A stretch of DNA of 31,882 nucleotides from an uncultured delta proteobacterium (lineage in GTDB: Bacteria; Desulfobacterota; RBG-13-43-22), in contig CAWDKY010000001.1 of assembly GCA_963802945.1 (NCBI GenBank), positions 1 through 31,882 on the forward strand, in the 5' to 3' direction. Made by a program: the position numbers and the translations under genes. Below the pieces are notes generated by a model that was not told the origin of the DNA, searched no databases, and saw nothing but the letters and a program-made list of their open reading frames with translations. The stretch's first letter is position 1; each line of letters starts with the position of its first letter. This document shows, piece after piece, positions 1,740-19,050 of the stretch.

Positions 1740-2545
1740 TTAGGTCAGGTAGCCAAGGTTTTTTAAGTGGTTTTCCAATTCGTTCGAAGTAAGCTGTTCT
1801 CCTCTCCTGATTCTCATGCGGAAATGAAGGAGGACATCGTCCAGTTTACTGATCTCCTTGGCCACAACCTTTTCATCCCCATCGCCGATAATGATCTTGG
1901 TCATGGCGCCGTTCTCCATGACAATACGAAAATCGGAGAGCAAAGCAATGCGGGGGTCGTGGGTCACAAAGATAAAAATCTTTTCGTACTTCTTGAGAAG
2001 TTCAAGCGCCCTTGTCCGATGAATGCCGGCGTTTTCGATCTCATCCAAGAGGATGATAGGGGCATTCCCGATGATGACGGCATCTGCAATCAGAAGTGCA
2101 CGGGTCTGGCCGCCGGAAAGTTCAGTCATGGGACTTTCCTTGATAAGAGGTTCACCCGTGAGCTTATTGGCAAACTCCAGCGTTTCTTGGACAACGCTTG
2201 CGATGCTTTGATGTTGACGCACCCCGGCGTGAATCTCGAGGAAATGCTCCACGGGCAAGTCCGACAAAAAATTAGTATGCTGGGAAATTAAAGCGATAGG
2301 ATGGTCATGCTTTTCCGAAATGGCCTCGTCGGAACTCACCGCTAGATTATTAATCAACAGCTTTCGCCCAGAAGGAGTATCCCCATTGGCAAAAAGCTCA
2401 ATATCGTTAATGAGGGTCGTCTTGCCGCAGCCGGTCGGTAACCGATACTCGCGATATCTCCCATCCGAAAGACCACTTCTTCAACCGATTCTCTGGCCCC
2501 CGATTTATCGAAGCCACCGATAATTTTGATGCTGTCTATCTTCAT
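1740..2545 (-). CDS. Stand-alone ABC-type ATP-binding protein, frameshifted near 2440
   Basis: ORFs 2354..2545 and 1740..2357 join through a damaged Walker A (..PTGCGKTTLINDIE). Signature LSGGQ, Walker B ILLDEIEN and H-loop VTHD are present. Confidence 0.8.
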
Positions 2546-2559
2546 ATAAACTTTCTATA

Positions 2560-2581
2560 TATTATGATATTGTTTATAATA
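2560..2581. promoter_or_regulatory. Putative operator TATTAT-N10-ATAATA upstream of the ABC ATPase gene
   Basis: TATTATGATATTGTTTATAATA; a matching copy lies at 3079-3100. Confidence 0.35.
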
Positions 2582-2607
2582 TTTATCATAAATTACTTTA
2601 AAATTTT

Positions 2608-3011
2608 TTATTGCAGCAAATCTTTTAATGTGAAGTTTTCAAGCTTCCTTGCCGTATAATTCCGGATATCCAGGAGCATATCTTTCAGTTTTGGAATCTT
2701 TTCGATCGGGCTACGTTCATAGAAATAGATACTTACCGAGCTTACCGAGGCAAGCGGCCCATCAAGCAGGCGTATCACATCCGCAAGCTTTGTCTTTTCC
2801 GGAACTTTGGATAGGGCATAACCGCCGTTTGACCCCTTTTACTCTTGACAATGCCAGCCCATTTGAGTTGAAGCAGTATCTGCTCAAGAAATTTGGCAGG
2901 CATCTCATATTTTGAAGCGATATTTTCAACCTTCAGCAAATCTTTCCCATAATTTGCCGAAAGCTCATAAAGAGCAAGAAAGGCATATTCACTTTTCAGA
3001 GACAATTTCAT
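2608..3011 (-). CDS. Rrf2-family transcriptional regulator without Fe-S cysteines (CymR-like), frameshifted near 2828
   Basis: MKLSLKSEYAFLAL...KFLEQILLQLK.AGIVKSKRG; with one base restored it continues GGYALSKVPEKTKLADVIRLLDGPL...LENFTLKDLLQ to TAA at 2608-2610. Confidence 0.85.
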
Positions 3012-3078
3012 TAATGGGTATGCCTCAAGATGTCAATAATGTTTAAAGATATCACAACTTGAATAAATTGTCAATAAT

Positions 3079-3100
3079 TATTATTCAGATTATCATAATA
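3079..3100. promoter_or_regulatory. Putative operator TATTAT-N10-ATAATA upstream of the Rrf2 gene
   Basis: Minus strand reads TATTATGATAATCTGAATAATA, matching the 2560 site in the first 10 and last 6 nt. Confidence 0.35.
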
Positions 3101-3641
3101 TTATAAGACTTTTTTTTTGATGGGTGTAGTGTAAAATAATAAAAAGACAGAGTAAAGGTGGAAAAAAGGACAGAAGGTACGTGATCGGAATGTGTTTTTA
3201 ACCGAGAAAGAGTCTTCAAAGGGCAAAACTGCCCAAAGGAATGTGCGATCAAAGGATTTGAAAAGATCATCCTCTGAAATTTACAAAGACTTTTCCATCT
3301 CGGGCCTGCTATTATCTCAAACGGTCGAGTAATTCGAGAAATTTCCGAAATCCTGATCCTCGCAGAAAGGAAGCTGGGAGTCCGAGCAGTCTATTTGAAT
3401 TTCGAGGGATTTGAGTCTGGGTGGGGGTCTTTGGTTGGCTTGCCTATGGTTTTAATCACCCGCTGACTTGATAACGATTACCTACAAATGGTTTAAGAAG
3501 ATAGACCAGAAAGTTAACGATTACTGTCTGAACTATGCAATCCGCCCCTCGATCAGATGAGGCGGCTTGGAGAGTATTTCCATAAATGTAAAGGGAATCA
3601 CGGCCTCTTGATTTTCTATTGGACAAAGCCTCCGTGAAAAG

Positions 3642-9303: not shown

Positions 9304-9518
9304 GGACTGGGCGTTCTTATTTTTTGGGGGTTTTCCACTATAACGCCCAATACTTCTTTGCCGGGCCAATTGTTTAACTAAATCTAAAGCAGGCCTTCAC
9401 CCAAGCTTGAAACGAGTAATGGTGTATGCCCTGCCTCGAATCAAACTTTGCTGGACAGGCCGGGATTGGGCGATAAGTTCCCCTTTGGACAACCCCCAAA
9501 AATAAAAACCCCCAGTCC
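9304..9518. other. About 215-nt rod-like inverted-repeat element (structured ncRNA or MITE)
   Basis: Roughly 30-nt imperfect terminal arms (GGACTGGGCGTTCTTATTT.. / ..AAATAAAAACCCCCAGTCC) with nested arms CGCCCAAT/ATTGGGCG, GCAGG/CCTGC and CACC/GGTG. Confidence 0.5.
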
Positions 9519-9549
9519 ATTATATCAATATTATTTTGAGACCATTAAT

Positions 9550-11711
9550 ATGATCATCTCACTCCTCTCAGTGGGCCTGATTTCCATTCTCGGTCAGGTT
9601 GTTCTGCTGAGGGAATTGAACGTTGCCTTCTATGGGGTTGAGCTGATTTACCTCTTTGCCCTGGGCATCTGGTTGTTCTGGACTGCCTCGGGTGCCCTGA
9701 TCGGCCGCCGGATTTATTTTCCATCCCCTAAGCACATTGCCTTTCTTTTTATGTCCTTTGCTGTCACCCTTTCTCTGGACGTGGTATTCATCCGTGCCAG
9801 CCGAATCCTTGTCGGCGGTGTGCCCGGTGCCTACCTCTCCCTCCTGCAACAATTGATGATTGCCGTCATATCCCTCCTCCCCGCAGGACTACTGTCCGGC
9901 CTTTTATTCCAGTGGTCGGCTAAAATATATGTAACCGGCGGCAGGACGCTGGCCATGGCTTATGCCATTGAAAGCGCCGGAGGACTGGTTGGTGGCTTAT
10001 TGGCCACTTTGTTCCTCAGATGGGGGATACAGAATTACACGATTGCCTTGGTGTGCGGCCTGGCCTTGGTTATTACACCGTTAGTCTTCTTGAGTGGTCC
10101 CGGGCAATCCACTCTGCGATGGACAGCGGTCATATTGACCGGTATTTTTCTTATGCTCCTGGGGAATGCGCCTCTACTGGACCGGCGGATGGACCGCTGG
10201 AACCATCCGAACCTCGTAGAAAGCAGGGATACGCCTTACGGCAGAGTTTCTGTCAGCAGACTCCATGGTCAGATATCTGTTTTTGAAAATGATGCTCTGG
10301 CCTTTGAGACGGAAGGAATCGAAGCCGAATACTTCGTCCACCTGGCGGCCCTCCAGCATCCCAGCCCCCAGCATGTTCTAATCCTCGGAGGGGGGATAGA
10401 AGGAACCGTAAGAGAAATGCTTCAGCATAGGCCGGAAAAAATCGACTACGTCGAACTGAACCCGGCGATGCTGAAGCTCGTTTCAGGACATCTCCCCGAT
10501 GCAATTCAAAAATCCCTCAAGGATCCACGTGTCCATATCATCTTTGCTGACCCCCGATTGTTCCTCAAAAAAAGCGGAACCTACGATCTCATATTGGTCG
10601 GGATGCCGGAACCGCAATCAGGACAAACCAACCGATTCTACACTAAGGAATTTTTTGAACAGTGCGCGGCAAAACTGAATTCCGGGGGCATCCTGGCCTT
10701 CAGGCTCCGCTCGGCCGAGAATCTATGGAGTCCTCAATTGCTGTGGCGCACGGCAAGTATTTACCGCGCTCTCACATCGGTTTATACCTGTGTGCTTTTT
10801 CTGCCGGGAACGACCAATGTTGTGACTGCTTCCCGCAAACCCCTATCGCGCCTGCCGGAGGCCATGTCCGGCCGCCTCCAAGAACGGAAGCTCAAGACCA
10901 GATTAATATCCGCCAACTACATTAAATATCTCTTTACAAACGATCGGTTCTTTGAAATCGAAAAGTTATTGCAGAAAGAAACGGCTCAGCCGAATACCGA
11001 CTTGAGACCTGTATGCTACCAGTATGCTTTCATGATCTGGCTGTCGAAGTTCTTTCCCCACATCTCTTTGCTAGATTTCTCTTTCTTCATTGACCAAGGG
11101 TCTCTAACACCTTCTTTTCAATGGTTGCTGTATATTGGTCTTCCTATTATTTTTCTGCTCAGCCGCCTCTGGCCGACTTGGCGCCGCGTATTGCTGGTCG
11201 CCGTTGCCGGCTTCATGGGCATGGTTCTGGAGACGATTCTCATTCTCTACTATCAAGCGAAACATGGCGTGCTCTACCAGGACATAGGGATTCTGCTAAT
11301 GAGCTTCATGGCCGGGCTCGCCCTGGGTTCCATGACCATCAATAAATGGATGGTCCGTTTAATGAATCAGCGAAAACCGGCCAGATGGTATGGGGTTGGC
11401 CTGCTTTTCGGTTTCGTTCTGCTTGGCCTTATTCTAACAACAATAATAACGCTGAGCCTTCATCAGGTTTAGCCCAGGCCTCATTGTTATTGGCAGCAGT
11501 AGGCATTTTAGTCGCGGGCATCTTCGCCTATGTCAGCCTTTATGAAATTCAAGATCAAAAGAGCGTGATTTCACCCCTGTATTCGGCGGACCTCATCGGA
11601 GGGTGTGCAGGTTCACTCCTTGCAGGCTTGATTTTAATCCCCGTGGCAGGGATCGATATAACGACACGAGCGATGGTTATGCTGGCCGTATTTTCTGTTC
11701 TTTTGGTCTGA
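9550..11711 (+). CDS. Membrane-bound spermidine synthase-like protein (multi-TM plus SAM/dcSAM-binding domain), frameshifted near 11460
   Basis: N-terminal TM bundle, TPYGRV, VLILGGG, DYVELNP, D.R.F, NRFYTKEFF and NTD.RP motifs. The C-terminal TM part (LYSADLIGG) continues in the 11346..11711 frame. Likely start is the ATG at 9550. Confidence 0.8.
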
Positions 11712-11742: not shown

Positions 11743-12939
11743 CTACAGATTATTTACCGCCGATTCTATCCGAAGTAATGCCTTCTCAAGGATAACGCGA
11801 GGACAGGCAATATTCATCCTCTCAAAACCGGAACCGCCCGATCCAAAAAGAAATCCGTCGTCGAGACCTACCCTGGCCTTGTCCCGCATGAAATTTCTCA
11901 GTTCCATCTTATCCATTAGCAGGTCGCGACAATCCAGCCAGATGAGATAGGTGCCCTCTGGTTTAATGACCTTTATCCTGGGGATTCTATCGGCAAAAAA
12001 GGGCATCAGGAAATCCAGGTTGCCTTGTAAGTATTCCAAAAGCTGGTCGAGCCAATCATCCCCCAACCGATAAGCGGCTTCCAGGGCCGCATACCCGAAG
12101 AGACTCGGACCAGGTAAAATGCCGGCCCTGGCAGCGGCAAAATCCGTTCGAAGTTTCTTGTTTGGAATGATGATGGAGGAAACCCCCAGGCCGGCCAGAT
12201 TGAAGGTTTTGCTGGGTGCCATGCAGATAATGGAATTCTGCTCAAACTCTTCAGAGATGGAGGCGAAGGGGATGTGTTTATGGCCTTTGAACAGGAGTTC
12301 GCAATGGATTTCATCGGAAATAACCATTACACCATGGCGGATGGCCATCTCTCCCACACGGATCAGTTCTTCCTTGTTCCAGAGACGCCCTACCGGATTA
12401 TGGGGATTACAGAGTATAATAGCCTTAACCCGGCTGGGGATCGGGCGCATACCTGCCTTAGGTTGAAACCTGTTTTCTAGGTCTTCATAATCCATTTCGT
12501 AATGACCGCTTGTGAGTTTTAATTCATTGGTGGAGATTTGGCATCCGCTCGATGTCACTGCCGGGAAAAACGGGAAGTAAACCGGTTCCTGGATAATGAC
12601 CTCATCACCAGGATGAGTCAACATTCTGACGGCGGCATTGAGCGCTGGAACAACCCCGGGGGTAAAAACTACCCATTCCGGCTTGATCTTCCAGTTGAAT
12701 TTTCGTTGCATTCGCTCGACCACGGCCTGAACGACTCCCGTCCCCGGCATGGTATATCCATAAAAGGGATGCTCTGCCCTTTTTTTCAGGGCTTCAACAA
12801 TAGGCTGGGCCACCGGAAAATCCATATCCGCCACCCACATGGGAATCACATCCTCACTTCCGAAAAGTGATTGCACGGAATCCCACTTGGCACAGTCGGT
12901 GTTTTTTCTGTCACAAACCTGTTCAAAATCATATTTCAT
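11743..12939 (-). CDS. MalY/PatB-family PLP-dependent C-S lyase (cystathionine beta-lyase-like)
   Basis: PMWVADMDF, LCNPHNPVG, SDEIH, APSKTFNLAG (PLP lysine), R.NIACPR. Confidence 0.9.
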   Translation of the reverse strand: MKYDFEQVCDRKNTDCAKWDSVQSLFGSEDVIPMWVADMDFPVAQPIVEALKKRAEHPFYGYTMPGTGVVQAVVERMQRKFNWKIKPEWVVFTPGVVPALNAAVRMLTHPGDEVIIQEPVYFPFFPAVTSSGCQISTNELKLTSGHYEMDYEDLENRFQPKAGMRPIPSRVKAIILCNPHNPVGRLWNKEELIRVGEMAIRHGVMVISDEIHCELLFKGHKHIPFASISEEFEQNSIICMAPSKTFNLAGLGVSSIIIPNKKLRTDFAAARAGILPGPSLFGYAALEAAYRLGDDWLDQLLEYLQGNLDFLMPFFADRIPRIKVIKPEGTYLIWLDCRDLLMDKMELRNFMRDKARVGLDDGFLFGSGGSGFERMNIACPRVILEKALLRIESAVNNL

Positions 12940-12959
12940 TTAGGTTCCTTTTTCTCCCA

Positions 12960-13113
12960 TACAGGTTGCTGAAAAAGGCCCATCTACTGTGTTGCCCTTA
13001 TCCCTCGTCATTGCGACGTACTTCTCTGTACGACTCATTCCTCGGGATTTCGGGCGTCTTGTATCTGAGCCTTTTTGAACAACCTGTAAAAATGATTTTT
13101 CAGCATCCTATTA
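12960..13113 (+). mobile_element. MITE-like repeat, copy 1
   Basis: ACAGGTTGCTGAAAAAGGCCC...CATTGCGACGTAC...CCTTTTTGAACAACCTGT plus tail; near-identical to the reverse complement of 14497-14651 and to 30791-30980. Confidence 0.8.
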
Positions 13114-13205
13114 ATATGGAAATAACATCTTCGGCTCTACCCTCCCACCTTGAGAGGGGGGGTGAGATAAGATAAGGGAAAATTTACACAATAAAAAGCA
13201 GGAAT

Positions 13206-13841
13206 TTATTTTACGTCGGCCTGATTATCATAGCCCTGCTTTTCCCAAAATCCTTGATAGGGTTTATCGGAAAGCTCAATCCGGGTCACCCATTTGACCC
13301 ACTTATAGCCCAACTTGGATTCAGCCACAACCTGAAAGGGAAATCCTCTTTTGGCATCCAAAGTTCGGTCGTTAATTTCAAAAGCCAGCAATAGGTCAAG
13401 ATGCTCGACATCTTTAAAAGTCAAAGACGAGGAGTCGCCGTCGGTTGCATAAAAAATAATCGTTGCTGCTTCGGGTTTTACTTTGGCTCGGTTCAATAAG
13501 TCCTTTATCCGAACCCCTTTAAACAAGAGGGTTTCCGTCCAACCCTCCACGCAGTGCAGGGTAATCACCCTTTCCTGAATGGGTAGTTTCAAGACCTCCT
13601 GATAAGTCATCGACTGAGGAGATTCCACCAGACCGTTTATGGTCAACCGATAAGTTTTAGGATTCACCTTTTGTGGACCTTTAATGGAATTGTCATAGGC
13701 CCGATCAAAAGGATCAAGATGTTTCCCTTGATAATCTCTGATCTCTCTCGTTGTCACTGAACTGGCTGAAAATAGAAGGGCCGGGAAGGCCATTAGGAAA
13801 ATACCCAAAGCAAGAAACCATATTAAGGTTCGAGTATTCAT
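13206..13841 (-). CDS. Molybdopterin-dependent oxidoreductase (sulfite oxidase/MsrP-like Moco domain) with hydrophobic N-terminus
   Basis: YRLTINGLVE.P, LHCVEGW (Mo-ligating Cys), GFPFQVV, GYKWVKWV, GFWE..GY. Confidence 0.85.
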   Translation of the reverse strand: MNTRTLIWFLALGIFLMAFPALLFSASSVTTREIRDYQGKHLDPFDRAYDNSIKGPQKVNPKTYRLTINGLVESPQSMTYQEVLKLPIQERVITLHCVEGWTETLLFKGVRIKDLLNRAKVKPEAATIIFYATDGDSSSLTFKDVEHLDLLLAFEINDRTLDAKRGFPFQVVAESKLGYKWVKWVTRIELSDKPYQGFWEKQGYDNQADVK

Positions 13842-13871
13842 AATATCGCCTCCAATCGTTGTTCGGGTATC

Positions 13872-14462
13872 TTATTTATAATTTTCGGGATGAAAATGTC
13901 TTTCTACCAGCTCGATTAAGATATGAAGCACTTTGATGTGCAGTTCCTGAACACGGTCGGCAAATTGACCACCGGGTGTGCAAATGCAGACGTCTGCCCG
14001 GTTTTTCAATTCCGATCCGGCTTTCCCTGTCAAGACGATCACCTTGATCCCTGAGGACCGGGCCGTTTCAACCGCCTTAAGTACACTCAGACTTTTTCCG
14101 CTGGTACTTATGGCTAAGAGACAATCACCCTTGACCCCATGACTTTCCAGGTATCGGGAGAAAACATAGTCATAACCGAAGTCATTGGCTACACAAGTCA
14201 AATGGCTTGGATCGCTGATGGCCACGGCCGGATAGCCTTTACGGTTTTTTCGATAACGGCCGGTAAGCTCTTCAGCAAAATGCATGGCATCACACATGGA
14301 CCCGCCGTTTCCGCAGGAAAAAACACGGCCTTTATTCTTGAAGGTTTCGATCAAAATTTTAGCCGCCGATTTAATCTTCTCTAAGGTCCCCTCGTCGGCC
14401 AGTAATCCTTCAAGGGCATCCTGGGCCTCTTTCAGGCTTGCTGTAATATTTTTAATCATCAT
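13872..14462 (-). CDS. gmhA: D-sedoheptulose 7-phosphate isomerase
   Basis: [38 protein letters not shown]. Confidence 0.93.
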
Positions 14463-14690: not shown

Positions 14691-15746
14691 TCAAACAGTA
14701 CAGGAAGGATGGAAACACTGGGGATCTTCGGCAAGAAAATCCCTCTCTCCTTTGGATTGAGAAAAGGCATAAGCAATGGCCCGGCAGCCGCGGCAGGCAG
14801 CCCATCGTTTACAAGAACCGCATTTCCCCTTATACTGACTCCTATCCCTCAGCCTTTCCAGGATAGGGGAAGTAACCCATAATTCCCGCAAAGAATCCTT
14901 TCGGATATTTCCAATAGGGATTGGAAGTCTTCGGCAGGGAGTGATCGTTCCATCGGGTAAGATGGTCATTCCCGACACTCCGGCGGCACATCCCCCTAAA
15001 GGGACATCGCCTGAATCCTGTCCATCGGCAAAACAATCCATTTGGGAGGCCACAGGGTCTCCGGTAACTATTTCAAGACCATCTAACTTGCAGGAAAAGA
15101 TTTGCCGATAGAGATCTCTGACCCTCTCTCTGGATAAGGTATGCGATAATAATCCAGCCCCTTTCCCCGACGGCACCAATCTGGAGAATCCCAGTCGGCT
15201 GACTCCAAGCGATTTTGCTAAATCGATCATTTCAAAAATGCTTCCGGCATTGAGTTCCGACAAGGTCATATTCAAGGTGATAGGAATTCTCTCTGACTTC
15301 AAATGGGCAACCCCCTTGAGTGAAGCGGAAAAACTTCCCTTACCCCTGATTGAATCGTGAATCTCTTCCGGCCCCTCCATGCTGATCTGAACCCCTTTTA
15401 TTGGCAGCCCGGCCAATTGTTTGGCCTTTTCCCGGTCAATCAAAATACCGTTAGACAGCAGGTAAAGATCAAATCTCTTTGCTCCCATAATCTCTAAAAT
15501 CTCAAAGAGATCAGGTCTTAAAAAGGGCTCCCCGCCGGTGACATTAAAACTGGGAGAAAAAGAGATTTCATGGGTCTCAGACCAGGCCTGGATCATCTCT
15601 GCAATTTCCACAACTACCGGCTTGATCTCCGATAAAGACATCTCACCTGGGAACTTCCCTTCCTGATAACAATGGCTGCACCTTAGGTTACACCGCTCGG
15701 TCAAGTGCCATTGGATAAAAAAATCAAAAAAATGATGGGTTAACAT
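14691..15746 (-). CDS. Radical SAM/SPASM-domain protein, probable peptide maturase
   Basis: QWHLTERCNLRCSHCY (CxxxCxxC) and TGGEP; SPASM cysteines CAAG...G.ITPC...CGSC..WAACRGCRA...DPQC; lies directly downstream of a small peptide gene. Confidence 0.88.
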   Translation of the reverse strand: MLTHHFFDFFIQWHLTERCNLRCSHCYQEGKFPGEMSLSEIKPVVVEIAEMIQAWSETHEISFSPSFNVTGGEPFLRPDLFEILEIMGAKRFDLYLLSNGILIDREKAKQLAGLPIKGVQISMEGPEEIHDSIRGKGSFSASLKGVAHLKSERIPITLNMTLSELNAGSIFEMIDLAKSLGVSRLGFSRLVPSGKGAGLLSHTLSRERVRDLYRQIFSCKLDGLEIVTGDPVASQMDCFADGQDSGDVPLGGCAAGVSGMTILPDGTITPCRRLPIPIGNIRKDSLRELWVTSPILERLRDRSQYKGKCGSCKRWAACRGCRAIAYAFSQSKGERDFLAEDPQCFHPSCTV

Positions 15747-15848
15747 GCGCGATTTGAATTTAGAATTTCAATTTCGGAACAAATAGGGGTCTCAAAATAA
15801 TCTTAAAAACTGTTCTCTGGAATTCGAGGCAGACCCTAATAAATAAGA

Positions 15849-15892
15849 AAGGGCGGATAAGACTTAGATCACCAGCTTGTTTATCCGCCCTT
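15849..15892 (-). terminator. Intercistronic stem-loop (terminator/attenuator or mRNA stabiliser) after the peptide gene
   Basis: Perfect 12-bp stem AAGGGCGGATAA/TTATCCGCCCTT followed by a U-rich TCTTATTT on the minus strand. Confidence 0.6.
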
Positions 15893-15898
15893 GATTTG

Positions 15899-15917
15899 CG
15901 TTGCTATCCAAGCAACG
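15899..15917 (-). promoter_or_regulatory. Putative bacterial SECIS hairpin
   Basis: CGTTGCT-TGGAT-AGCAACG: 7-bp perfect stem with G at loop position 2; the loop lies 26, 17 and 8 nt after the three in-frame UGAs. Confidence 0.55.
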
Positions 15918-16041
15918 TTCAGGATTTTCAACTCTTTCACTTGTGGCATACCTTTCCAGGATTTTCCTTTAAGACCTTCTTCACTTTATCCCAGTAGGCA
16001 GCCTCCTTGGCCATGACCTTAGGGGTCAGCTTATTGGTCAT
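15904..16041 (-). CDS. Putative selenocysteine-containing RiPP precursor (MTNKLTPKVMAKEAAYWDKVKKVLKENPGKVCHKUKSUKSUTLLG)
   Basis: GGAGGTGA Shine-Dalgarno (16048-16055), ATG at 16041, in-frame TGA at codons 35, 38 and 41 in register with Cys32, TAG at 15904-15906; flanked by two radical SAM genes. It is 34 aa if the first TGA is a stop. Confidence 0.72.
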
Positions 16042-16074
16042 CCCGATTCACCTCCCTTTACATAAAGTTTTTAT

Positions 16075-17730
16075 CTATGATACCAATTGATGGAAGGATG
16101 TCAAAGCTTTTTTTACCCTAATCACCTTTCCTTCTTGAGTTTTGATAAAATCCAGTCTGTTCCAAAAATTAAAAAATAAATCTTTGTTAAACCTGGAAAG
16201 CGGTTTACAACCTTCCTTGGTGGCCGCATATAGACGGCCTTCCTGCAATAGCTTTTCGAAAAGTTCGGCCCCGAGGGTCGATCTTTTCCCCCTGTTGCGC
16301 GCTATGTTTAGGGCTTCTTCCAGACCTGACGATTCATTTTCAAATCGGAGGCCTTTAAAAAAGTTGATGATCCGCGTGACCACGAAAAGGGTATAAATGT
16401 CTTTCCGCTTAAAATGATCGGTTTCAACCGACAGGGCGGTCAGCCGGGATTTAAAAATATCCTCTTCGGTTGGGTCCGGAAATATTTGGGCCATGGGGGA
16501 ATTGGGCGTCAAATAAAATGGCGAAGCGCCCAGAAGAACAGGAAGTTGAGAATTCAGACACAGAGTTTGGATCATCGAATCCAGGGATTCGCCCGGCAAA
16601 CCCAGTACCTGATAGGCAACGATTTTAAATCCCAACCTGGATGCTTCGTTTACGATTTGAAGATATTTTTCCATTCCTTGAGGTCGAAGGGTCTCTTTCA
16701 GGATTTTCGGATTGGATGTGACCAGAGAAAGATTAAGGTGTGTAAAATTGGCCTCTCTCATCAATTGTAACAATTCCGGGTCCAGACTTTGATAAGAGAT
16801 CCCGTTCATGGCCAGGCATTCGATCTCTCCAGGAGGAAAAGTCTGTTTCATTTTCCGGCATAAAGTTTTCATCTCCTCTTGGTCATAAGTGAGATTATCG
16901 TCTTCGAAATCGAACACCCGGTAGCCTTCTTGATAACGTCCGTAAATTTCTTTAAATACATTTTCAGCGGATCTCCTTCGGTGCAGAGGAAAGGTGCAGT
17001 GCACCGAGCAGAAAGAACATCGATGCGGACAGCCCCGGGAGGTAATGAGAAAACACAAAGGTCGTTTTTCATAACAATACTTTTTCAGTCCTAAATCTGA
17101 AAATTCCGGTAGGGAAAGTTCTTCTATGGGATAAGGTTCTCCCAATGGATTGAAAATCAACCGGCCTTCTTGTTTGTATCCCAATCCTGGAACCTGTTCC
17201 AACCCCCTTCCTCTCTGACAGACCTTGATCAATTCCACCAGGGGCCTCTCTCCTTCCCCCCGAATCACCCAATCGACCGCAGGATGTTTAAGCATCAAAT
17301 CCGGAACGGCCGAGACATGGGATCCGCCAATGACTATAGGACAACTGGTTTTCTTTTTGATCGCTCCGGCGCATTGCAACACCTCTTGATAGTAAGGGGA
17401 AAAGAGCGAAGATATGCCCACAAGGTCAGGTTTTTCATAGGCCACTGCCCGGGCAATAGTTTCAAAAGAGGCCCCAAAATGATAATAATAATGAAACAAA
17501 GAAAAAGGACTTTGGTCCGGCCAGGGATAATACGTTTTCAGATAAGTTAATGCCTTGGGTAAAGCAATCGTCCGCCTGCTCCAGCCCTGATGGAAATCCA
17601 TGATGACCACCTTGACTTCCGACAAATGTTTTTTGACCGCCGCCTTCAGATAAGCCAGGCCCAAAGGTTGAAGCCTTACCTTTGTATCGTAGAAATCCTG
17701 AATCGGGGGCTGGACAAGAACAAGTTTCAT
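16075..17730 (-). CDS. B12-binding domain radical SAM protein (class B methyltransferase-like)
   Basis: PLGLAYL, PDLVGIS, IVIGGSH and RGEGE (B12-binding domain); TSRGCPHRCSFC and FEDDN. Confidence 0.88.
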   Translation of the reverse strand: MKLVLVQPPIQDFYDTKVRLQPLGLAYLKAAVKKHLSEVKVVIMDFHQGWSRRTIALPKALTYLKTYYPWPDQSPFSLFHYYYHFGASFETIARAVAYEKPDLVGISSLFSPYYQEVLQCAGAIKKKTSCPIVIGGSHVSAVPDLMLKHPAVDWVIRGEGERPLVELIKVCQRGRGLEQVPGLGYKQEGRLIFNPLGEPYPIEELSLPEFSDLGLKKYCYEKRPLCFLITSRGCPHRCSFCSVHCTFPLHRRRSAENVFKEIYGRYQEGYRVFDFEDDNLTYDQEEMKTLCRKMKQTFPPGEIECLAMNGISYQSLDPELLQLMREANFTHLNLSLVTSNPKILKETLRPQGMEKYLQIVNEASRLGFKIVAYQVLGLPGESLDSMIQTLCLNSQLPVLLGASPFYLTPNSPMAQIFPDPTEEDIFKSRLTALSVETDHFKRKDIYTLFVVTRIINFFKGLRFENESSGLEEALNIARNRGKRSTLGAELFEKLLQEGRLYAATKEGCKPLSRFNKDLFFNFWNRLDFIKTQEGKVIRVKKALTSFHQLVS

Positions 17731-17853: not shown

Positions 17854-19050
17854 ATGATTTACATCATCATTGGAAACGGGGTTGCCGGAACGACCGCAGC
17901 CGAGACTATCAGAAAAAACGACCCCCAGGGTGAAATTAAAATCTTCAGCGCTGAAGCCTATCCTTTCTATAGCCGCATACGCCTGATGGAATACTTAGCC
18001 GGAGGGATAGAACTCCCGAAACTTCAGATCCGCTCTGATGCCTGGTATAATAATCAAAAAATAAAGCTTTTCCTGAACAGCAAAGTGGTTGATATTGATG
18101 CCGCCAAAAAAGAAGTCATAACTCAATCAGGAGAGCGACACGTTTTTGACAAACTCCTCTTGGCCGACGGCGCTCACTCTTTTGTCCCGCCCATAAAAGG
18201 GGCTGAAAAGAAGGGCGTTTTCACCCTGCGCAATATCAAAGACGCTCAAGAGATCAAGGCCTTTGCCGCAGGCAAGGCCCAGGCTCTGCTCATCGGAGGT
18301 GGACTCTTGGGGTTGGAAGCGGGAAACGGCCTTCGAAAAACCGGATTGAAGGTGTCCGTGGTTGAATTTTCTCCCCGCCTTCTTCCCCGTCAAACCGATC
18401 CGGCCTGTGCCTCCCTGCTTCAGACCCGTTTGGAGCAGATGGGTTTTTCTTTTTATCTGGGAGCGGCCTCCAAAGAAATCGAAGGTGAGGCTCAAGTGAA
18501 AGGGCTGCTATTGGAAGACGGCCGCCGGATAGAGGCCGATCTGATTATTATCTCCGCCGGGGTCAGACCCAATTTGGAACTGGCTCAAAAATTGGGCTTA
18601 AAAATAGGAAAGGGAATTCCGGTTTCAGATCAGATGGAAACCGAGATTCCGGGAATTTACGGGGCCGGCGACAGCATCGAACACCAGGGGAGGCTCTACG
18701 GCATCTGGCCGGCCTCGGAAAAACAAGGGGAAACTGCCGGTCTGAATATGGCCGGAAAGCCTACGGCCTATAAAGGCACCACCCCTTCCAACCTGCTCAA
18801 GGTGGCCGGTATCGATTTATTGGCCTCCGGTGACATTGATCCTGACGGTAAACTGGAATCCTTTGTAGATCAAAATCAAAAAATCGGGACTTATCGGAAG
18901 ATGGTCATCAGTGATAATACCATCGTAGGTTGTTTGCTTTTCGGCACCTTGGAAGGCCGTAAAAAAATATTAAAGGCCATGGAAGAAAAGAAAAATATTT
19001 CCGCCGTTAAAGACCGCCTGGCACAGTTTGATCTGGAAACTTTGAATTAA
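17854..19050 (+). CDS. NAD(P)/FAD-dependent oxidoreductase (NADH:rubredoxin reductase / NirB N-terminal-like)
   Basis: IIGNGVAG (FAD), YSRIRL, IGGGLLGLE (NAD), GVRPN, IYGAGD, LKVAGIDL. Confidence 0.88.
   Translation: MIYIIIGNGVAGTTAAETIRKNDPQGEIKIFSAEAYPFYSRIRLMEYLAGGIELPKLQIRSDAWYNNQKIKLFLNSKVVDIDAAKKEVITQSGERHVFDKLLLADGAHSFVPPIKGAEKKGVFTLRNIKDAQEIKAFAAGKAQALLIGGGLLGLEAGNGLRKTGLKVSVVEFSPRLLPRQTDPACASLLQTRLEQMGFSFYLGAASKEIEGEAQVKGLLLEDGRRIEADLIIISAGVRPNLELAQKLGLKIGKGIPVSDQMETEIPGIYGAGDSIEHQGRLYGIWPASEKQGETAGLNMAGKPTAYKGTTPSNLLKVAGIDLLASGDIDPDGKLESFVDQNQKIGTYRKMVISDNTIVGCLLFGTLEGRKKILKAMEEKKNISAVKDRLAQFDLETLN

Follow-up and report, generated by a model that had tools for sequence, protein, structure and literature searches.

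An overlooked peptide gene with two conserved in-frame UGA codons, probably read as selenocysteine, beside a radical SAM/SPASM enzyme gene in anaerobic bacteria

Can a short reading frame that is interrupted by three in-frame UGA codons be a gene, and if so, how many of these codons are read as selenocysteine (Sec), and which enzyme acts on the product? These questions are raised by a frame on the minus strand of a contig of 31,882 nucleotides (nt) from an uncultured delta proteobacterium (CAWDKY010000001.1, positions 1 to 31,882, assembly GCA_963802945.1; hereafter the window), which a reading of the letters alone (the sequence-only reading) had proposed as a candidate precursor with three Sec residues for a peptide made on the ribosome and modified after translation (RiPP). 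We used homologue searches in genomes and metagenomes combined with covariation analysis, gene-neighbourhood comparison and structure modelling to examine it. Our analysis indicates that the frame is likely an overlooked Sec peptide gene, in which two of the UGAs are decoded through a single Sec insertion sequence (SECIS) and whose 40-residue product is probably modified by the adjacent radical S-adenosylmethionine (SAM)/SPASM enzyme. The peptide would represent a new Sec-containing, RiPP-like family, widespread in anaerobic bacteria and apparently undescribed.

All the signals ascribed to the frame are present on the minus strand between positions 16060 and 15900 of the window. The ribosome binding site GGAGGTGA (16055..16048) lies 6 nt 5' of the ATG (16041..16039), and AGGAGGTG is found upstream in 17 of 17 homologues. 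The ATG follows 33 nt after the stop of a 551-residue open reading frame (ORF) for a B12-binding radical SAM protein (16075..17730). The frame comprises 34 sense codons (MTNKLTPKVMAKEAAYWDKVKKVLKENPGKVCHK) and then a TGA at codon 35 (15939-15937), AAG AGT, a second TGA (15930-15928), AAA TCC, a third TGA (15921-15919), ACG TTG CTT GGA and finally TAG (15906-15904); the two Lys-Ser spacers are indeed written with different codons (AAG AGT and AAA TCC). We assign the peptide gene to 15919..16041 (minus strand), with 40 codons plus stop, a leader of residues 1 to about 29 and a core ending in C32-H-K-U35-K-S-U38-K-S40, where UGA-35 (15937..15939) and UGA-38 (15928..15930) would be read as Sec (U). 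The leader carries a conserved helix, KEAA[YF]W (KEAAYWDKVKK in the window peptide), and E13, W17, K21, C32 and K34 are invariant in an alignment of 18 peptides. As had been suspected, gene callers have overlooked the frame beyond its first TGA: all 10 database clusters end there, as ORFs of 34 or 42 residues closing on ...VCHK or ...VCRK, and neither the 45-residue read-through form nor the 34-residue form matched any curated NCBIfam or Pfam family at E <=10. Global recoding of TGA in this organism is rejected, because 6 of the 25 long ORFs listed from the window use TGA as their stop.

A six-frame search with the read-through peptide in 61 genomes (the window's own and 60 relatives) gave clear matches at 20 places, all with in-frame stops, which belong to genus g1 (that of the window), three more genera of the same family and one other family; counting that of the window, 14 g1 genomes were searched, and 9 of them had a match at E < 1e-15. 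These matches, three further copies and the peptides found upstream of enzyme homologues in named metagenome-assembled genomes (MAGs) make up a set of 41 loci (40 distinct), with MAG labels of Nitrospirota, 'delta proteobacterium', Geobacter, Deferribacteres, Syntrophales, Thermodesulfobacteriota and Chloroflexi/Dehalococcoidia. The sequence-only reading had named Cys codons at the TGA positions of homologues as a sign of Sec, and TAA or TAG at codon 35 as a sign against it. Of the 41 loci, 40 have TGA at codon 35 and one (locus L016) has TGC; codon 38 shows the same split, with the single TGC in L039, and TAA or TAG occurs at neither codon. Sec sites are usually recognised by such an exchange of Cys and Sec. 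Both replacements are found in paralogues of a single genome, G008, where L016 reads CHK-C-KS-U-KS and L039 reads CHK-U-ES-C-KS. This genome carries three copies of the peptide gene: the cassette copy L039 (C15:128570) with Cys at codon 38, the orphan copy L016/L038 (C10:534955) with Cys at codon 35, and the orphan copy L040 (C10:222850), which has both TGAs and is followed 240 nt downstream by a gene for a 471-residue flavoprotein resembling dihydrolipoyl dehydrogenase and MerA.

The stop that ends the frame drifts among the homologues in both kind and position. It comes at +3 after codon 38 in 29 loci (TAA 14, TGA 8, TAG 7), at +4 in 11 (TAA 5, TGA 3, TAG 3) and at +5 in one (TGA), or 19 TAA, 12 TGA and 10 TAG overall, which argues that the third TGA of the window (15919..15921) is a real stop. 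Judged from their conservation, the first two TGAs have the pattern of selected sense codons, and the third position that of an ordinary, drifting terminator. Selection at the protein level past the first UGA, which the synonymous spacers had suggested, is also seen downstream: codon 39 encodes Lys in all 41 loci (AAA 23, AAG 18), Ser at codon 40 is written TCN in 19 and AGY in 12, and Ser at codon 37 is written AGY in 20 and TCC in 5. Metagenomes were searched with a degenerate form of the core in which each of the two sites could be TGA, TGC or TGT, and 80 loci were taken from at least 119 matching stretches, many of them on sediment, wetland and groundwater contigs. By its leader motif alone, each of 50 of these loci (46 distinct) was classed as a family member, and without exception both sites of these 50 are TGA. 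Among the 30 loci outside the leader pattern, 16 have TGA at both sites, several of them being, by eye, members with variant or truncated leaders, and the 14 that have a Cys codon at either site all lack leader-like sequence. No all-Cys member was found among about 90 sequences or in the 10 database clusters. The arrangement is beyond chance, because it recurs in 41 genome loci and 50 metagenome contigs.

Decoding of UGA as Sec calls for a SECIS downstream, as the sequence-only reading had claimed, and a covarying hairpin is present there (15899..15917, minus strand). It begins one base past the third TGA and has a 7-bp stem (CGUUGCU/AGCAACG) and a UGGAU loop. In a MAFFT alignment of the 41 loci, 92.5% of the hairpin cells are standard pairs, versus 15.8-57.8% when the partners are slid, and 4 of the 7 pairs show double-sided changes (e.g., G-C 25 / A-U 12 and U-A 18 / C-G 15). 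The covariation score of 0.344, versus 0.172 for shuffled alignments, was reached by none of 500 shuffles; related sequences inflate this shuffle control, a weakness from which the slid control is free. The loop G is nearly invariant and usually stands in GGU(C). Measured from this G, the U of UGA-38 lies at 21 nt, UGA-35 at 30 nt and the third TGA at 12 nt. Two selenoprotein genes of the same genome served as controls: the selD hairpin has the loop CGGGA at +20 to +22 from its own UGA, and a formate dehydrogenase-like gene has a GGU loop at +23, as read from the sequence, its minimum free energy (MFE) fold being without that stem. The 21-nt spacing to UGA-38, compared with 20-23 nt in these genes, thus places the hairpin at this organism's SECIS position, and the third TGA, at only 12 nt, is too close to be served. 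Spacings of roughly 16-37 nt have been accepted in published bacterial searches. The four codons after the third TGA (translated 'TLLG') are conserved because they are the SECIS hairpin, with compensatory base changes. Hairpin distances taken from MFE folds of individual sequences scattered: the first loop G fell 19-22 nt past UGA-38 in 63 of 82 distinct sequences, the rest folded otherwise and one further sequence gave no hairpin, and the alignment count is therefore preferred. The hairpins of L030 and L053 (GUUGCAGGUCUGCAAC) are ones that we take to resemble the SECIS of E. coli fdhF. An Rfam E-value scan of 15780-16100 returned two chance-level matches and no SECIS family, and no control for the UxxU spacing was gained from the NF041115 and TIGR02605 homologues of the same genome, which are without in-frame stops.

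The Sec machinery that the sequence-only reading had wished to see confirmed is present in the source genome. selA (627 bits), selD (392 bits, with its own in-frame TGA) and tRNA-Sec (selC) were found, as was selB, whose integrity is uncertain and whose N-terminal piece scores 266 bits (G000:C30:178945-180834, minus strand). selA was also found in all five other carrier genomes tested. G008 has a second selA copy (C13:443305-444664) in four pieces, one with an internal TAA, besides an intact copy on C20.

The tie to a radical SAM/SPASM enzyme is borne out by gene linkage. The conserved partner, likely the maturase, is a 351-residue enzyme encoded at 14691..15746 (minus strand), with a CxxxCxxC motif (C19, C23 and C26) and seven invariant C-terminal Cys (C253, C271, C309, C312, C318, C321 and C344). 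Its gene lies downstream of the peptide gene in 15 of the first 17 loci (L029 is cut by the contig end after the first 35 enzyme residues, and L016 is an orphan) and in 34 of the 39 metagenome loci with enough room. Seen from the enzyme, the peptide is encoded upstream of 22 of 23 SPASM homologues at >=44% identity and of none of 14 at <=37%, as inspected in L044-L080 (37 of 80 loci, the 43 of L081-L123 being left out). In the Syntrophales- or Thermodesulfobacteriota-type loci L058, L060, L063 and L065, the conserved SPASM N-terminus DFFIQWH begins a few bases from the SECIS hairpin (at ~2444-2500 in L058 and L063); the hairpin thus overlaps the translation start region of the enzyme, an arrangement in which a terminator would not fit and which hints that translation of the two genes is coupled. 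Radical_SAM and SPASM are the only Pfam domains of the enzyme, so there is no sign of a RiPP recognition element (RRE). Neither the window enzyme nor any of four homologues taken from other phyla reached the cut-off of an NCBIfam model, and the best scores of the window enzyme were AhbD 175, NirJ2 165, ACGX 161, GeoRSP 146, SbtM 140 and MftC 136 bits. Its nearest solved relatives all act on peptides or proteins; by sequence they are SkfB, PqqE, CteB and anSME, and by fold SkfB, anSME, SuiB, CteB and PqqE, as found with an AlphaFold model of moderate quality (predicted local distance difference test score, pLDDT, 70.3, and below 50 in the SPASM part), which was used for the fold search only.

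A model of the complex between the 34-residue peptide (alignment of 18) and the enzyme (alignment of 8) favours binding of the leader by the enzyme without showing it. The score was 0.87, the best of three controls being 0.08; 58 of 80 solved complexes attained that mark, as did 2 of 110 mismatched pairs, counts that are rough because our own alignments were used. The model runs share at least 73% of their contacts, and the partner pLDDT is at least 73. Leader residues 12-24 (KEAAYWDKVKKVL) touch enzyme residues 55-61 and 285-292 in the model, where the invariant leader residues E13 and W17 pair with positions beside the invariant enzyme residues W55, R287 and W290.

The peptide gene also appears to have expression signals of its own. 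A promoter-like site (16077..16104, minus strand; TTGACA, a 16-nt spacer and a TG-extended TATCAT, 11 of 12 hexamer positions matching) sits in the last codons of the B12-binding radical SAM gene, and a TGGTATCAT-like -10 element recurs upstream in several homologues of the same genus. Between the peptide and SPASM genes lies a terminator-like hairpin (15841..15890, minus strand; GGGCGGAUAA ... UUAUCCGCCC followed by UUUCUUAUUU) with a fold of -20.3 kcal/mol, which was missed by a consensus scanner because its loop is long. Its GGCGGAT arm recurs in homologues of the same family, and loci in which the two genes abut lack the hairpin.

On these grounds, a strong promoter of its own and, in this genus, the terminator-like hairpin would yield a short, abundant transcript, with some read-through into the enzyme gene. 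SelB, acting on the single SECIS at 15917..15899, would deliver Sec-tRNA at UGA-35 and then at UGA-38, with release at the third TGA. The leader helix of the resulting 40-mer would dock directly on the radical SAM/SPASM enzyme, and the C-x-x-U-x-x-U tail would enter the active site, where Cys or Sec probably ligates an auxiliary cluster. A 5'-deoxyadenosyl radical would then start either S/Se-C cross-linking or beta-carbon oxidation. By analogy, the most plausible chemistries are thioether and selenoether cross-links as in sacti- and ranthipeptides, or oxidation of the Cys/Sec beta-carbon as by anSME and SbtM. The invariant Lys that follows each Sec may, as we infer, serve as an acceptor or in recognition.

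Several observations weigh against this account. The loop of the window hairpin is UGGAU, not the GGU(C) typical of most other lineages, and the 30 nt to UGA-35 exceed the 20-23 nt of the two checked selenoprotein genes, so that efficient decoding of the first UGA is presumed. selB lies in three reading-frame pieces of 266, 242 and 282 codons, and hence with two frame breaks in the assembly, which could be an assembly error or a real defect and which bear on whether the source MAG can insert Sec. As regards the enzyme, the top-scoring profile models are those of the haem pathway (AhbD and NirJ2) and not of peptide maturases, all far below their cut-offs, and the high score of the complex model may be due in part to solved leader-maturase complexes such as SuiB-SuiA. 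Linkage is also incomplete: five of the 39 metagenome loci and two orphan copies have no enzyme nearby, and at L049, on a Nitrospiraceae MAG contig, no peptide gene could be recognised within ~1 kb upstream or 0.9 kb downstream of the enzyme gene (2501-3565; enzyme identity 59%). A small membrane protein is encoded upstream of that enzyme homologue instead. Finally, co-transcription of the peptide and SPASM genes is not assured in the window, given the terminator-like hairpin between them.

How many of the UGAs are read through, and by what means, can be weighed with the same data. Reading all three as Sec, as the sequence-only reading had it, would give a 45-residue precursor, C-x-x-U-x-x-U-x-x-U-TLLG. 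The window does have TGA at codon 41 and an open frame to the TAG five codons on, and TGA is the terminal stop in 12 of the 41 genome homologues (8 of them at +3) and in 19 of the 50 metagenome members. But codon 41 is TAA or TAG in 21 of the 41, so that with the TGAs 29 stop there, and the other 12 run only one or two sense codons further; the third TGA lies 1 nt from the stem and 12 nt from the loop G, versus 20-23 nt in the checked genes, and the 'TLLG' codons are the hairpin itself, as its compensatory base changes show. A third Sec is thus highly improbable, and the product is better described as a 40-residue peptide ending in C-H-K-U-K-S-U-K-S, with two Sec and not three. Nor does it seem at all probable that the first UGA is an ordinary stop, with a 34-residue product and with downstream conservation that belongs to an RNA element, such as one that controls the SPASM gene. 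All 10 database clusters were called in this way, and some 34-mer is likely made anyway, since Sec insertion in bacteria competes with termination. However, codons 35 and 38 are TGA or Cys in 82 of 82 cells, whereas an ordinary stop would drift; after both UGAs, Ser is written now with TCN and now with AGY; the position and loop of the hairpin fit a SECIS; and in the orphan copies the arrangement is kept in full although no SPASM gene follows. A frameshift instead of Sec insertion was considered and rejected: both alternative frames are open in the window, but they give unrelated tails and different ends in other lineages. The -1 frame of the L056 core, read by eye, stops just past the core.

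Two further explanations accept decoding of the UGAs and differ in what the product is for. The ORF could act mainly as a Se-sensing leader, in which progress through the UGAs, set by the supply of Sec-tRNA, controls the terminator and thus SPASM expression. Two UGAs directly 5' of a terminator-like hairpin and an enzyme gene, as in this genus, would suit such a role, and the role proposed for the product is itself putative. Against this stand the leader residues conserved across phyla (E13, W17, K21 and C32 being invariant in 18 peptides), the high confidence with which the leader is modelled on conserved enzyme residues, the Syntrophales- and Dehalococcoidia-type loci in which the SPASM start lies a few bases from the SECIS hairpin with no room for a terminator, and the existence of orphan copies, and we consider this explanation very unlikely. 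Somewhat less remote, while still unlikely, is a small selenoprotein partner that docks on the enzyme unmodified, as a C-x-x-U-x-x-U redox, metal-binding or Se-carrier peptide and not as a substrate. It would agree with the nearly invariant core, with the lack of a conserved protease or exporter nearby, and with the pyridine-nucleotide-disulfide oxidoreductases that adjoin the cassette in genera g1 and g4 and one orphan copy; UxxU motifs are moreover listed for predicted metal-binding and redox selenoproteins in a table of a recent review (PMC13188914). Yet every one of the enzyme's nearest solved relatives has a peptide or protein as its substrate, a leader followed by a C-terminal core and a tight gene pairing are traits of RiPP precursors, and the oxidoreductase neighbours are not conserved outside two genera. 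A two-Sec precursor modified by the SPASM enzyme therefore remains our preferred explanation.

The other neighbours of the peptide gene are of narrower distribution. The B12-binding radical SAM enzyme (551 residues; 16075..17730, minus strand), with B12-binding and Radical_SAM domains, is directly upstream in the window, but it does not hold as the conserved partner: it is found upstream in 9 of 17 loci, all of genera g1 and g4, and in 2 of the 37 metagenome loci with enough upstream sequence, and is thus a lineage-specific accessory beside the conserved SPASM enzyme. It passes no NCBIfam model, the best score being 110.8 bits to a P-methyltransferase model with a cut-off of 575. Divergent to it is a gene for a pyridine-nucleotide-disulfide oxidoreductase of 398 residues (17854..19050, plus strand) that resembles the N-terminal part of NirB and rubredoxin reductase; it accompanies the B12 enzyme in g1 and g4, and its cluster (c2) was seen in the window, L043, L039 and L042. 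Together, the B12 enzyme and this flavoprotein may provide an extra tailoring step in the two genera. In 11 mapped loci there was no conserved neighbour beyond the SPASM enzyme, and no protease, exporter or PqqD-like gene. Further downstream, the window encodes gmhA (sedoheptulose-7-phosphate isomerase), a 211-residue protein with a molybdopterin-binding oxidoreductase domain and a PatB-family C-S lyase (11743-14462, minus strand). Of these, gmhA alone recurs, in one other locus (L039), and no link to the peptide was seen. A 674-residue ORF at 9448-11472 (plus strand) contains a central spermidine-synthase domain and is weakly similar to fusions of major facilitator superfamily and spermidine synthase proteins.

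What would such a peptide do? We incline to a peptide cofactor inside the cell, with a redox or metal-binding role, over a secreted antibiotic or bacteriocin, because the core is near-invariant across phyla, the peptide is present in most of the g1 genomes searched, export and protease genes are lacking, and some genomes carry extra orphan copies. That it is a widespread, obligately Se-dependent peptide cofactor of anaerobes, containing a selenoether or selenoheterocycle and forming the Se counterpart of mycofactocin, is a tentative and rather doubtful proposal. If it is true, this would be the second natural Sec-RiPP family, given that SbtA/SbtM was the only natural Sec-containing RiPP system in the literature searched, and the first to extend across Nitrospirota, Desulfobacterota-type lineages and Dehalococcoidia. 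If confirmed, the peptide would represent a new class of natural product or cofactor containing selenium, offer a compact test case from nature for one bacterial SECIS that serves two close UGAs, and supply a defined substrate for new radical SAM/SPASM chemistry on Sec; it would also show that very short ORFs escape selenoproteome surveys.

In the literature searched we found no description of a C-x-x-U-x-x-U peptide family; supplementary tables, which could list one, were outside the scope of that search. The string 'CxxUxxU' does not occur in the main text of a 2026 review of prokaryotic selenoproteins, which lists UxxU proteins and the 'selenobacteriocin' (PMC13188914). The closest known system is SbtA/SbtM, called 'selenobiotic' or 'selenobacteriocin' (TIGR04081 and TIGR04082), with a GGUG/SGUG motif and probably at least two Sec (PMC9204691, PMC11002830, PMC13188914). 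It was reported from Geobacter and Desulfobacteria and described as limited to them (PMC9204691); the SbtM maturase makes a thio(seleno)oxazole, and beta-carbon oxidation was proposed for both SbtM and anSME (PMC9204691). SbtA/SbtM shares with the present locus a short precursor, an in-frame UGA, a SECIS just downstream and an adjacent radical SAM/SPASM enzyme, and the window enzyme can be aligned with the SbtM model over its C-terminal 320 residues. The likeness to the Geobacter 'selenobiotic' drawn by the sequence-only reading therefore stands as an analogy, but not as membership, since the pair fails both family models. The read-through peptide has no TIGR04081 match, and its Sec residues stand in K-U-K and not in GGUG/SGUG. 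The window enzyme scores 139.9-140.4 bits against a TIGR04082 cut-off of 350, covers only positions 188/199-515 of the 516-position model and is without the N-terminal part of ~200 residues; four enzymes from other phyla score 127 to 145 bits. The source genome has no true SbtM, and the taxonomic spread of the window-type family is wider.

Other systems resemble the locus in single respects. anSME is similar in size, combines radical SAM and SPASM without an extra N-terminal domain, acts on the beta-carbon of Cys or Ser and ranked second in the structure search, but it has only ~20% identity to the window enzyme, and its substrate is a sulfatase without a leader and not a dedicated small peptide. 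Mycofactocin (MftA/MftC) and PQQ (PqqA/PqqE) likewise start from a short conserved precursor with its reactive residues at the extreme C-terminus, in a cassette that is conserved vertically; the score to the MftC model is 135.8 bits, and PqqE is among the solved relatives. These pathways, however, need a PqqD/RRE chaperone and tailoring genes, none of which is conserved here, and they involve no Sec. Predicted UxxU selenoproteins (e.g., NF041115 and the FmdB family) also have UGAs 9 nt apart, probably with one shared SECIS (PMC13188914), but they are unrelated folded small proteins without radical SAM linkage. Sacti- and ranthipeptides (SCIFF/CteB, PapA/PapB, Tte1186 and SkfA/SkfB) share the Cys-periodic C-terminal core, and their leader is bound by a radical SAM/SPASM (or Twitch) enzyme, as would be the case here; the window enzyme passes none of the maturase models compared (PapB 78.1 bits against a cut-off of 340, StsB 87.3 against 625, AlbA 69.4 against 850 and SkfB 67 against 300). 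In vitro, Sec can stand in for Cys in the substrates of PapB and Tte1186, which then form Se-C bonds, and with Sec-substituted substrates ligation of an auxiliary cluster was seen by Se X-ray absorption spectroscopy (PMC10177961). Natural members of these families use Cys, whereas two of the three chalcogen residues of the peptide described here would be Sec.

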